Part shown: piece after piece, positions 9,977-31,483 of the stretch
How the letters are laid out: every line of letters starts with the position of its first letter
How positions within the stretch are numbered: position 1 is the first letter of the stretch
NCBI GenBank assembly: GCA_054600435.1
Contig: BAAIJX010000003.1
Location: 806,001-856,010 of the forward strand
Direction of reading: 5' to 3'
DNA: 50,010 nucleotides
Source of the DNA: Neophaeotheca triangularis
Lineage: Eukaryota
Made by a program: the position numbers and the translations under genes
The notes under the pieces: generated by a model
What the model was told of the DNA's origin: nothing
Seen by the model: only the letters and a program-made list of their open reading frames with translations
Database searches by the model: none

Positions 9977-11344
9977 TCATTCATGACCCATCGTCTCGTT
10001 GTAGGCACACGCCAGGTCGCGGTTCAGCGAGAAGTTGTAGGTGGCTTCGAGAACGTAGGGGTTGTCGCCGGGACCGAAGATCTGCCTCTCGTCACGCTGC
10101 CATTCGGGGTTGTTGATAGCATCGATCCAATCTTGGACTTCCATGACGACGCAACCGTACTGCTCTACCACGCGGGGGCGGTCTGCATCGTCGAAAAAGC
10201 CCTGGGTTTCCTTCAAAGCCAATGTGCCTGGTTCTTAATCAGCACAGGACCAACATTACGTTCAACCATCAGACTTCACTCACCTCGCATGTTGTTACAA
10301 TCGAAGATTTGGAACGCTTCTTGATCGGTGTAGACGTCGACCTGAATTCCAGACCAAGGGCTCGCCAGAGTGGCAACAGGCTTGTTACGCCAGTCGTATG
10401 GCCCGTTCTGAGCGCGGTTGACGAGATAGCAGGTGTCGTAGCCAGTACATCCGAGACCGCAGTTGCCCTCAGCCTCAGGAGCGGTTATGTTTGCACCGAG
10501 CTGTTTCGGTGCGGACCACCAATCGTTGACCCCGTTCTGCGTGTTGGGCAGGATCTCTCCGGTGGGAATCAGGATGTTGTCGACAGCAACACGCTGACCC
10601 GAGTACGGGAGGTGTATGGTATGGTTCAGTGCGGAGTTAATGTCGGTGTTCTGGTAGCCGTCCAGATTCCAGTACGTGTGCTGGCTGAGCATGATGGGTG
10701 TCTTCTTGGTAGTGGATGTCGCAGTCATCTTGATGTGCCATTGGTACGGAGTGAGGGTATAAGTCACAAGGGAAATGACCTGGCCGGGGAAGCCTTGCTC
10801 GCCATCTTCATCAGTGAGGGCGAAAGTGATGGAGCTCGTAGTGTGAGCGACAACCGTCCAGTTGCGCCAATCATAGCCGTTCTCGCCACCGTGCAGAGTA
10901 TTGAGGCCATCGTTGTCATTGGGGTTGGTGTTGTAGGTTTCACCGTCGATTGTGAAACTGGAGTTCTTGATACGGTTTGCGTATCGGCCGGGAACACCGT
11001 TGAGATGAGGATGCAGCTCATCCACGCTGTAGTAGCTGGCGTTATCAAATCCCTGCAAGTCTGTCAGTGACAAGGACACAGCAAATGTGATTCTTTTCCC
11101 CTACCAAAACGATATCACGCTCAACGCCCCTGGTGTCCTGGATGAACAGGTTGCTCATCGACGCGCCATATGGGATGAACAGAGCCCGAATGCCTTCGCT
11201 CGAGACTTCGTATTTGCCGTCGTCCCTCACGTCAGAACCATTGCCGGCAATCATTGGCATGTCGTTGTGGGAGTAACTGCCATACATCTGGGTACGCGCC
11301 AGCAGAGGCAAGGCCGCCCACAAGGCGAGGCTCTTGAGACCCAT
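9977..11344 (-). CDS. Secreted aldose 1-epimerase (galactose mutarotase family), 3 exons
   Basis: Exons 11344-11105, 11052-10284 and 10227-9977. Introns 11104-11053 (GTAGGG..CTGAC..CAG) and 10283-10228 (GTGAGT..CTGAT..CAG). Motifs GRYANRI, LHGG, HTYWNLDG and MEVQDWIDAIN. Hydrophobic N-terminal signal MGLKSLALWAALPLLA. Confidence 0.88.
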
Positions 11345-15169: not shown

Positions 15170-15669
15170 TTTGCCGGTAAGGTGTGGTTGTGTTAAGTGA
15201 GGAAGAAAGTCGCCATGAAATTCAGAGCTTGCCGACCTAGGGAAGCTCCAGGCCCCAGACCTTGGCGCTGTCACAGTTGAAAGTAAGTGGAAAGTTAGCC
15301 GAAGCGTCAAAGAGTAGGAGTGAGGGAATAATCAAAAGAGACCTGAGGTATGCAGAGGACTAGCCGAGCCGCCGGGTACAGTGAAGAGATCCGCGGAAGC
15401 GGGTCAAGTGGTTCCGTGGCGCAAGCCATGATAGTTTCCTTTTGCTAGCTATTGAAGTTGGTAGCTCTCCAAATTGTTGAAGCAAGATATCTGGCTCGAG
15501 CTGGTTCTTTCAACCGCTTCTGTACTTGCAACAGGTCGCACACCCATCATCCCTAGCATTAGACCGGTCCTCTAACTACATAGGCACCAGTCGCGTGTTG
15601 AAGCCTTGCGCAGTCTCAATCGTGCCGCCGCAGATCATCGCTCTCAATCACCAAAGGAAACGCTTCATG

Positions 15670-27792: not shown

Positions 27793-29119
27793 CTAGAGAG
27801 CGACAGGCTCCTCGCTCTTGTGCTCCGTCGACTCGGGCGTAGGCTCGGTCTTGGGCGCGCTGGGGAAGTCACCGTGCTGAACACCGCCAGCAGGAACGCT
27901 CTCGCCAACGCGGTCGATGGGTTGTCCGGGGGCCTTCTCAGCCGTCTCCTTGTTCACCACACCATTGTCCACAGCGGCCTTCTTCGCTCCGCCCATCATC
28001 TCTTGCGCCTTGGCAGCGTACTGCTTTGTAGCGGAGCTGGTGGCCTCCATGGCCTTGTTGGTGTGCTGTGAAGCAATGTTGCGCATCTGCTCTGTCTGCT
28101 TGCTCATGATGTTGCCGGCGTTCTCAAGGTGAGAGTCGATGACAGCCTGGTTCTTGATGTAGACCAATGGAGCGAGGTAGACGAAGGTGGTGCCGATGAG
28201 GGCGAGGCCCCAGTTTGGCACAAACTTGACGAGGAAGTAGCCGATCAGAGCAGTAGCGAAGGCCTAGTGAGTGATTAGTGAGTTGTGCTTGCGAGCAACT
28301 TGCAGCGTTTGGTGCATCTTACAGCGATGGTGACGTAGACGTTCTCAGCAAAGATGATGCGCTGGAACTCAATGACGAAGAAGTTGATGAGCTGCTCAAC
28401 ATCCTCAAGCGCAGCCTCCAGAGATTCGCGAGGGATGGTGTAGTATCGCTTCGGGCGCATAGAAGTTGCGAGACCCTTGCCCATGACGAAACGGCCCACG
28501 AGCTCGGCGGCCGCAGTGATGCCAAGAATAATATACGTGGCCTTGAAGGTGTAGCGTATGATGGGGACATAGCGGGTCGCAAAGATCAAGAAGATGGTGG
28601 TAGCAAAGGAGATGCTGGTGGCGCGAGGGTTCTCCCAGGACAGCAGGTTGTAGAACATGCTGTGGTAGTGGGTGAGGCTCTGGCCAGTTGCGGTAGTGCT
28701 ATTAGGCATCTGGCGGCTGTTGGCAATGTTGCTGAACTCAGACCTAGTGATCTCGGCCTCGGCGCGAGCCTTGTCGGCCATGGGTCCGTTTTGGAGAGAT
28801 TGGATGGTTTGAGAGTTGGAGATGGAGTTCATGGCGGAGTTGGCGCCTGTGGATTGGGTTAGGTTGGTGTGAGAAAGGAGGTGGTGTTGCGGTCAGGTTA
28901 GAGGTGTCAAAAAACTGCGAGTGAGAGTTAGTAGACGGTCGATAGCTAGGTACTGTAGGTATGGGAGATGCCAGGTAACAGGTTGTGCCTTACCTTACTG
29001 TCAATGGCCTTGTTCTTGGCCGTCTCAGCCTGGGAAGCAGCACTGCCGTTGCTGTTTCCGTATGGGTCGAGGTTTGGGTAATCGGCCTGCTGGCCAGGTG
29101 CGGAGCTGGTATCGGCCAT
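27793..29119 (-). CDS. RTN1: Reticulon-like ER-shaping protein (Rtn1/Cwl1 family), 3 exons
   Basis: Exons 29119-28999, 28846-28323 and 28263-27793. Reticulon domain LLSWENPRATS..FFVIEFQRIIFAEN..YLAPLVY. The first intervening sequence is a nested intron; the second intron is 28322-28264 (GTAAGA..CTAAT..TAG). Confidence 0.88.
28847..28998 (-). other. [D5,6] spliceosomal twin intron (stwintron): internal intron 28993-28915 nested in the donor of the external intron
   Basis: Minus strand reads A|GTAAG[GTAAGG...TACTAAC...CGCAG]TTTTTT...CCTAAC..CACAG|GC. Removing the internal intron rebuilds the donor GTAAGT, and the final product is in frame (D-S-A-N-S-A-M). Confidence 0.8.
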
Positions 29120-29221
29120 TACGAACTTGGTAGGAAGGTCTGGATGGGGGGAGCGTGGAGTTGAATCGGCCTGATCGAGTCGTATTACAGCTTGGAAGTT
29201 GTAGTTGTTGTCGTTGTCGTT

Positions 29222-29270
29222 AGTAGAGGAGAGAGAGAGAGAATAGTAGTAGTAGTGGTGGTAGTAGTAG
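29222..29270. repeat. Compound microsatellite (GA)n/(TAG)n upstream of the reticulon start codon
   Basis: agtagaggagagagagagagaatagtagtagtagtggtggtagtagtag, read directly. Confidence 0.7.
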
Positions 29271-29933
29271 AGGTTTGTTGACGTTGGCGAAAAGTGCTCG
29301 CGTGCGCAACGGGGCGGTTTCAAGAAAGTGCAAACAGCCCAGGGCACAGCTGCAGCTGCACCCACTCGCAAGCCACAACACACGTCATCAGCTCAACAAT
29401 CTTGACATTGGATGAACACAACAACCCGTATTGGAAATTACCTAGTAACATTGACTGCGACCTCGTTCCAATTAATATAAATGGTAGTATACAGTACTTT
29501 CTCTTATTATTGTTATTGCTGATATGTGATTATCCCCACGACATACCTTATGTGTCTGGCTTCAGGTTTCACAACACCTCTGCCCGCTGGATACAGACAG
29601 CATATACCGTACATAACTAATGCCTGCACAATTGTCGGCGGCCAATCAATGATTCCTAATGGCCCTGCCGCCGTGACGAAACGTTAGCGGATCTACAGAG
29701 TGAGTGCTATTTTGACATGTGAAAGCCACTGGCAGCTACTACAACCTACTACCTCCTAATAAGGTAAGGTAGCTAGCATTTGAAATCGATGAATGCGAAA
29801 ACTCCAAGCTTCCCCTATCCAGCTAGCACCCGGCCCCCGGGTGATACACTGAGAAGACTCCAAAGTTGCTCGCGATCGACAGTAACTGTAACTCGAACTA
29901 CGCTTAGGTGGCAGTTGAGAGCATCTTCAGCCC

Positions 29934-31483
29934 TCAAGCATTGCAAGTCTGATAAGCCCTCGGAAACGCAACGACATCTTTAATCGACTGCGCCCCCGTC
30001 AAATACACCAGTAGCCGCTCAAACCCGATGCCAAACCCCCCGTGAGGCGACGTGCCATAGCGACGCAGATCCGCAAACCATGTGAGCGAGTCCAGGCTCT
30101 CCCCTTCGCGCACATAAGGATAGTCTCCGCCCTTCTCCAAACCCATGCCGGCATTGCTCTCTTTGAAGAAGTCTTTTTCCCGTATCACTTCCACGAGCTT
30201 GTCAAGGCGGTGCTCTCGAAGACCTCCCGAGAAGACTTCGGCCACGCCGGGGAGTAGCAGGTCTACAGACTCCGTGGTCTGCACGCCGTTCTCAGTAGAT
30301 GGCGGTGGCGACTGCAACGCGGAGAAGAGACGTATCTTTGTCGGGTAGTGGGTGACGAAAACCGGGCGCTTGAAGTGCTGTAGTAGGAACATCTCATGCT
30401 CCGTCGAGAAGTCGATCTCAGGTCCCGGCTTCTCGTCAAAGTTCGTCTCCTCTCCGCTCACAGCGTCCAACATCAACGCCACAGCTTCCGCGTGCGTGAT
30501 CCTCGGCCAGTTGGGCTCACAGAGCAGCTCCCACCTGGCCCGCAGCTCAGAGCTCGTGACTGGTGTTGTACCAGCACGACCAACGCTCTCAAGCAGTTCG
30601 CGACCCACAGGAGAAGCTCGAAGCCTCTGTATAAGCCCACGAGCAAAGTCCTCGCACATCTCAAGCAACGGCTCCAAAGCCTCGACATAATTAATCGCAA
30701 CCTCCAGCATATGGAACTCCGCCAGATGCTTCTCATCCAACACCCTCTCAGCGCGGAAACTCGGCGCAAGCATCCAAACACGATCCAAGCCCATTGCAAA
30801 AGCTTCCCCATGAAGCGCCGCCGTGACGGACAGGTAGCGCCGCCCGCCGAAGAACTCATCCCGGAGCACGGTATTCTTCTTCGACCTCTGCGTCAGGACG
30901 GGGAAAACTTCCGCTCCGCCTTCGCAATCGGTGTGTGTGATTACCGGGTGGTGGACTTGGGTGAAGGTGCCTTCGGGGTGCGTGGCGAAGTATTCGGTGA
31001 TTGCTGCGATGGTGGCAGACCGGAAACGCATCAGGAGACCTTGCCAAGGGGTTCGTAGTCGGAGGTGTGGGTGTGCTAATGTTGCAGAGGGGCCGTGGTT
31101 GAGGGGGTTCGAGGCGTCTGATAGACCTAGGACTTTGGCGTCGGATACTTGCAGTTCGTGCTTTTGGTCTTGGCTTAGGATGCGGTTGCCTTGCAGCTGG
31201 ATTGTCGACCATTTGGGTAGGTCTTTGATAGTCTGTGAAGGCTGTTCGATGCGGGCTCGTAGGGGGCGGATCGTGCTGCCATCGTGGATGGTGATGATTC
31301 GAGCGTCGGAAGTGCTGTCATCTTTGTCACTTGATACTTCGTCGACTGTCCCGGAGAGAGTGACCGGATAATCCAGACGTGAGTTGTTCGGTGTAGTGTG
31401 AGGTGGGTAAGTGGGTAAGTTGATATTCTTACAGCAAAAGGGAAAGACAAAGGCGTTAGAAGGAGGGCTCAACTAACACGCAT
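29934..31483 (-). CDS. Divergent asparaginyl-tRNA synthetase-like protein (class IIb; related to the mitochondrial-type AsnRS)
   Basis: Contains HPHLRLRTP, motif 1 region FTQVHHPVITHTDCEGGAEVF, motif 2 PSFRAE..HLAEFHMLE, PVFVTHYP and motif 3 DLRRYGTSPHGGFGIGFERL. The start is uncertain; one model is ATG 31483 plus an intron 31477-31428. Confidence 0.8.

Follow-up and report, generated by a model that had tools for sequence, protein, structure and literature searches.

The gene encoding a reticulon-like protein on the minus strand of the analysed stretch of the Neophaeotheca triangularis genome (50,010 nt of contig BAAIJX010000003.1, positions 806,001 to 856,010, hereafter the window) is interrupted near its 5' end by 152 nt that begin with two abutting donor sites and contain two branch site and acceptor pairs. 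This raises the question whether the sequence is removed as one ordinary intron or as an intron nested within the donor of another intron. A precedent exists in the same gene: according to Kavalecz et al. (2019, PMC6616335), a [D5,6] spliceosomal twin intron (stwintron) forms the 5'-most intervening sequence of rtnA, where it lies in phase 1 in the variable N-terminal region. That study mined 754 orthologues and reports the element from almost all sequenced Pezizomycotina, Dothideomycetes included; the splicing intermediate was confirmed by RT-PCR and sequenced in six species (A. nidulans, A. niger, B. cinerea, T. reesei, N. crassa and H. solani), and EST support is given for Tuber. The first-pass annotation of the window had pointed to donor-disrupted stwintrons from Pezizomycotina, among them one in the Aspergillus reticulon-like gene, which agrees with what we find in PMC6616335.

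The predicted gene has three coding exons. The coding part of exon 1 (28999..29119, minus strand) runs from the ATG at 29119-29117 through 40 codons to 29000 and ends with an A at 28999; its translation, MADTSSAPGQQADYPNLDPY...KAID (MADTSS..YPNLDPY..KAID), is followed by the first base of codon 41. Exon 2 (28323..28846, minus strand) supplies the two bases that finish codon 41 (Ser) and a further 174 codons, which include the first portion of the Reticulon domain (Pfam PF02453, E 1.5e-18). It is separated by intron 2 (28264..28322, minus strand; 59 nt, phase 0, with the canonical signals GTAAGA..CACTAAT..TAG) from exon 3 (27793..28263, minus strand), whose 156 codons (28263-27796), followed by the stop, encode the last part of the Reticulon domain together with the C-terminal tail; here the match to profile positions 110-157 of PF02453 scores 31.0 bits, against a cut-off of 31.8 bits for that piece alone. 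The predicted spliced product is a reticulon-like protein of 371 residues. The host is an rtnA orthologue with the PF02453 domain, and the 152-nt sequence interrupts it in phase 1, after 40 codons and 1 nt. Upstream of the gene, a series of CTA/CCA triplets with a CT repeat after it (29225-29275, minus strand), approximately 110-150 nt from the ATG, is likely to belong to the 5' leader or promoter, and an open frame of 512 residues (29934-31472, minus strand) adjoins the reticulon gene.

The nearest proteins in a large collection are reticulon-like proteins from Dothideomycetes, among them Meristemomyces, Zasmidium, Recurvomyces, Cladosporium and Ramularia, and are 60-70% identical over exon 2. 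A second protein search returned as the best relative a protein encoded on a 20-kb contig (P0121), which is 91% identical and matches exon 2 only; no protein with more than 91% identity was found in either search. When 19 orthologues are aligned, exon 1 of the Neophaeotheca gene fits their N-termini (MAD..YP.L(N/D)P..), the domain aligns over its full length, and the junction of exons 1 and 2 falls just before the conserved block ..A(Q/N)SxM(D/N)S(I/V).N.

Reading of the minus strand and recomputation by script gave the following anatomy for the sequence between exons 1 and 2 (28998-28847), and upheld all coordinates that the first-pass annotation had assigned to its donors, branch sites and acceptors. 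The outer donor starts with GTAAG (28998..28994), and the inner donor directly abuts its G5, so that the two read GTAAG|GTAAG (28998-28989), as in the pattern GTRWG|GTRWG. The putative internal intron (28915..28993, minus strand; 79 nt) comprises the donor GTAAGG (28993-28988), the branch site TACTAAC (28933-28927) and the acceptor CAG (28917-28915). It exceeds the minimal length of 42 nt, and its branch point sequence ACTAAC is located nearer to the acceptor than to the donor (55 nt past the donor, 9 nt before the CAG); no inner acceptor other than the CAG ending at 28915 has a branch motif 4-30 nt upstream of it. The remainder of the putative external intron (28847..28914, minus strand; 68 nt) follows directly with TTTTTT (28914-28909), and the first of these bases, the T at 28914, would complete the donor GTAAGT (pattern GTRWGH) upon removal of the inner unit. 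The resulting outer unit of 73 nt has its own branch site, CCTAAC (28863-28858), 8 nt before its own acceptor, CAG (28849-28847), and its excision restores the frame. The segment 28914-28850 contains no AG and no GT, and includes two branch-like motifs besides CCTAAC. The outer and the inner donor read the identical hexamer GTAAGG, so that donor strength does not favour the inner one.

The reading frame is preserved solely by excision of 28998-28847. Joining the outer donor to the second acceptor leaves the frame open through exon 2, with the junction ..KAID-S-ANSAMNSISN, while the outer donor paired with the first acceptor gives a stop at residue 42, the inner donor paired with the first acceptor a frameshift and a stop at residue 98, the inner donor paired with the second acceptor a stop at residue 47, and the unspliced sequence a stop at residue 57. 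These recomputations reproduce the earlier claims that removal of the 79-nt inner unit rebuilds GTAAGT and leaves a 73-nt outer intron with the in-frame junction ..ID-S-ANSAM, that the other single-step pairings fail, and that loss of all 152 nt at once is likewise in frame, its product being identical to that of two-step removal. One could also imagine a role for the two acceptors and the tandem donor in alternative splicing that is partly unproductive, with early-stop transcripts lowering the output of reticulon: the three other pairings all end in premature stops, and in A. niger and N. crassa the rtnA stwintron is involved in alternative splicing in the form of exon skipping (PMC6616335). 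We regard such a role as very unlikely, as the Neophaeotheca gene possesses neither an exon II nor a second intron that could be skipped, and the mere existence of the sites is all that points to regulation.

The arrangement shares with the [D5,6] stwintron described from A. nidulans and other Pezizomycotina (PMC6616335) the PF02453 gene, the place as first intervening sequence, phase 1, nesting between G5 and base 6 of the donor, and the regeneration of GTAAGT. The sizes of the units are also near, with 75 nt (inner) and 76 nt (outer) in the A. nidulans gene AN5404 versus 79 and 73 nt in Neophaeotheca. The differences are that the Neophaeotheca gene has one further intron as opposed to five in A. 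nidulans, and that it lacks the small exon II and the second intron of the published rtnA. In having no second intervening sequence it resembles Capnodiales, Myriangiales and Aureobasidium, from which that sequence is reported to be absent (PMC6616335). Among the matches listed in Table S1 of the same paper, Dothideomycete elements measure about 116-435 nt overall, with approximately 116-125 nt for Pleosporales, 158 nt for Botryosphaeria and 235-255 nt for Aureobasidium, while those of Acidomyces, Baudoinia, Hortaea, Cladosporium, Zasmidium and Zymoseptoria span 256-435 nt; compared with the last five of these genera, the Neophaeotheca element is compact at 152 nt. Its local oddities, namely the compact size, the G at position +6 of the inner donor, the full TACTAAC and the outer part free of AG, are variation inside the published range.

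Two of its features depart from the string with which [D5,6] stwintrons were searched for, GTRWGGTRWGH(25,120)DYTRAY(4,24)HAGH(25,120)DYTRAY(4,24)HAG (PMC6616335, Methods). The strict string has no match in the window; it fails at the reticulon site at two places, with G instead of A, C or T at position +6 of the inner donor, and with C instead of A, G or T at the start of the outer branch site. In the Methods of PMC6616335 this string is a screening tool and not a definition of the stwintron. Relaxed at those two positions, it matches once in the window, with both strands scanned, and the match is the reticulon site; in 200 dinucleotide shuffles the relaxed string occurred 0.065 times on average, with at least one match in 12 of them. 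The bare tandem donor was observed three times in the window against 1.02 expected. Tandem strings of the form GTRWG-GTRWG at 10614-10623 and 15177-15186 on the plus strand were rejected as chance occurrences, lying inside or antisense to long ORFs and having no downstream signals. The string alone is thus only mildly improbable, and the weight of the assignment lies in the orthologous place within an orthologous gene.

That place was compared across metagenome contigs, which were scanned using exon 2 aligned with 24 orthologues, and the best 80 of 181 confirmed loci were taken. Loci in which the frame stays open for 250 codons or more beyond the match were classified as transcript-like (34 of these 80), and the other 46 as interrupted or genomic-like. 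Within these best 80 of 181, a tandem donor GTRNG|GTNNG is present at most 900 nt upstream of the match in 36 of the 46 genomic-like loci, two of them doubtful (L042 and L043, where it lies in a GT repeat), versus one of the 34 transcript-like loci (L002); most of the ten genomic-like loci that have no tandem donor offer less than 250 nt of upstream sequence. The exceptional transcript-like locus L002 retains an entire stwintron (381-639), though its frame continues downstream. At L031, L033, L076/L077 and L078, two tandem GTRNG|GT donors each, about 200 nt apart, were seen upstream of the match. These doubled donors would fit a further [D5,6] stwintron, located at intron position 2, such as has been reported for many Dothideomycetes and Lecanoromycetes (PMC6616335).

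For a closer comparison we selected the nine closest distinct genomic loci (L001, L002, L004, L006, L007, L008, L009, L011 and L012), dropping the duplicates L013 and L027, and searched them with the strict branch motif; a model of 28 loci with a relaxed motif proved noisy for distant loci with an extra exon and intron. All nine share the same layout, though they are not nine independent lineages, since L006 and L011 form one close set and L008, L009 and L012 another. In each of them exon 1 ends in phase 1 (..A) and is followed by GTRAG|GTNNGN, a GCTGAC branch site precedes the inner CAG by about 8-11 nt, and the next base is a T that would yield GT(A/G)AGT. The outer unit measures 66-88 nt, and its branch site precedes the final CAG by 5-16 nt. 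This branch site reads CCTAAC in seven loci (5-12 nt before the acceptor), TCTAAC in one and TCTGAC in one, while the remaining intron sequence has diverged between the sets of close loci. CCTAAC, which fails the published motif, is therefore the predicted outer branch site conserved in this group. As in Neophaeotheca, the junction precedes a block of the form ..A(N/Q)(S/T)xM(N/D)S(I/V), and no second intervening sequence is found ahead of the reticulon domain. The Neophaeotheca copy differs from these closest relatives in size (79 nt for the inner intron and 152 nt in total, versus 193-272 nt and 259-357 nt, respectively) and in its inner branch site (the full TACTAAC versus GCTGAC).

The intron position and phase, whose alignment with reticulon orthologues the first-pass annotation had recommended, hence coincide in nine of nine close genomic loci. 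Its further proposal, that the element is a conserved orthologous stwintron in another lineage, stands as regards the orthology, to which the correct order and spacing of all five signals can be added, but the lineage is not a new one, Dothideomycetes having already been covered in PMC6616335. The same comparison bears on the idea that we are dealing with splice-like strings that arose by chance in a long intron, unrelated to the published element. The shuffles that matched the relaxed motif and the near-chance rate of bare tandem donors speak for it; against it, the gene, the position, the phase and the order of signals agree with the published element (as described in PMC6616335) and with all nine close relatives, and we consider a chance origin already so improbable as to be nearly negligible.

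Evidence at the RNA level comes partly from the gene itself and partly from its relatives. Twelve sequencing runs matched (11 recorded as RNA; best word share 0.45), and the contigs of four of them, X1, X2, X3 and X6, were analysed. The gene was met in marine metatranscriptomes, whose contigs extend over parts of 28100-28821 and leave 28822-29350, with the start of exon 2, the 152-nt sequence and exon 1, uncovered. RNA contigs from X1 and X2 span 28367-28821 at 95-100% identity, and an X1 RNA contig joins across intron 2, skipping its 59 nt and thereby confirming it. An otherwise identical X1 contig is without 3 nt at 28641 in exon 2, probably a one-codon difference between strains. A crude intron scan of the window yielded 55 candidates with a median length of 264 nt, dominated by false pairings, and the short consensus-like ones among them measure 50-68 nt.

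Among the metagenome loci, the transcript-like L005 (10-1550) and the genomic L006 (946-2832), which are 88% identical, align in two blocks, and L005 omits exactly positions 1181-1498 of L006, 318 nt that correspond to its complete predicted stwintron. This pair supports the predicted mature junction in the nearest clade. Another contig, L014 (1-260; cf. L018:40-470 and L017:640-1070), comes from another species. It matches the genomic L018 at 98% over exon 1 through GTAAG, skips 182 nt of L018 that begin with GTACGT and end with CACAG, and keeps a 55-nt external stretch that starts with T and ends with TTTCAG before exon 2, so that its donor reads GTAAGT. It is also without a downstream 56-nt GT..AG intron that is present in both L018 and L017. 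L014 has the form expected of a [D5,6] splicing intermediate in a related fungus; alternatively, it could stem from a species that has lost the inner intron and represent an mRNA in which an ordinary intron was retained. Two further transcript-like contigs (L015:1-242 and L016:1-290) begin in sequence resembling the 3' part of a stwintron and have no in-frame exon 1, and could represent RNA that was left unspliced, or else a start within the intron. Contigs from metagenomes and metatranscriptomes can in this way supply both mature and intermediate forms for uncultured relatives.

Judged by its anatomy, by the logic of the reading frame, by the orthology of gene and position, by the conservation of the signals in relatives, and by the RNA forms of those relatives, which fit a mature transcript and an intermediate, the segment 28998-28847 (minus strand) is very probably the Neophaeotheca copy of the ancient rtnA [D5,6] stwintron, and we infer that in Neophaeotheca both steps of its removal occur, in the following order. 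In the first step the nearest usable sites would pair, i.e. the inner donor GTAAGG (28993) with TACTAAC and the CAG ending at 28915, and the 79-nt internal intron would be excised. GTAAG would thereby be joined to the next T to give the consensus donor GTAAGT. A second standard U2 reaction, using GTAAGT, CCTAAC and the CAG ending at 28847, would then remove the 73-nt external intron and complete codon 41 (A+GC, Ser), yielding the mRNA for the 371-residue protein. In recursive splicing of long metazoan introns, the first step likewise creates the donor for the second step (a regenerated 5' splice site, or ratchet point); there the donor is composed of bases at the exon end and a GT at the internal acceptor, and the introns extend over tens of kilobases. 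Unlike at such ratchet points, in Neophaeotheca it is a whole small intron that is placed within the donor hexamer.

The same mRNA would result if the outer GTAAGG (28998) reacted directly with CCTAAC and the CAG ending at 28847, in which case the 152 nt would be one ordinary intron, and the inner signals relics or sites used occasionally. Apart from the identity and frame of the product and the identity of the two donor hexamers, this explanation can draw on the loss of the inner intron with retention of a standard intron at the position in less than 3% of species, one Dothideomycete among them (PMC6616335), and on Lipomyces starkeyi, where splicing of a related nested intron in this gene takes either one or two reactions (PMC7138796). 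We nonetheless find it unlikely for Neophaeotheca. The inner signals are intact and strong, with a full TACTAAC, 9 nt, and CAG, and the T after the inner acceptor, which is needed for GTAAGT, also follows the CTGAC-linked acceptor in nine of nine relatives, even though their introns have diverged. Furthermore, fungal splice sites are described as pairing across the shortest intron (intron definition; PMC6616335, Methods).

One-step and two-step splicing may also truly compete at the Neophaeotheca copy. This we suggest only tentatively and with considerable doubt, on the grounds that the two GTAAGG donors are identical, as if produced by a clean 5-nt duplication, that the inner unit is reduced to 79 nt, compared with 193-272 nt in the nearest relatives, and that the AG-free external part holds three branch-like motifs. 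The reticulon-like gene of L. starkeyi shows that both routes can coexist. Its first intervening sequence, a [D6,7] 'stwintron sensu lato', also begins with a pair of abutting donors (Ag et al. 2020, PMC7138796, in which it is stated that no species of Saccharomycotina has the [D5,6] form). The L. starkeyi element differs from the Neophaeotheca one in that nesting occurs after base 6, so that the outer donor is already whole when the first step takes place, and in that its one-step route uses the downstream donor and gives an mRNA longer by 6 nt (PMC7138796), a pairing that in Neophaeotheca leads to a frameshift.

As regards annotation, six of the 19 aligned orthologue models appear wrong at the junction (P0001, P0013, P0019, P0033, P0003 and P0011): four are without exon 1 and start at a Met just past the stwintron, and two carry an insertion of 20-30 residues at the junction that resembles translated intron. 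The expectation of the first-pass annotation that standard gene callers would mis-annotate the element is borne out to this extent, but a caller that accepts a 152-nt intron with the donor GTAAGG obtains the right protein, because one-step and two-step removal yield the same mRNA. In practical terms, gene models at the reticulon locus call for care. Scans that rely on the motif only can be expected to undercount stwintrons, given that the published one would miss the Neophaeotheca copy with its +6 G and CCTAAC.

The Neophaeotheca sequence is a genuine case of an element known from the literature, and its local peculiarities are minor. The element, its host gene, its position and the two-step mechanism were described in 2019 for almost the entire subphylum, this class among them, and the finding has little import beyond annotation. 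Were the tentative competition between one-step and two-step removal to prove true, the locus would constitute a compact model of how the spliceosome chooses between identical abutting donors, and would parallel, within Pezizomycotina, the transitional state known from Lipomyces starkeyi.
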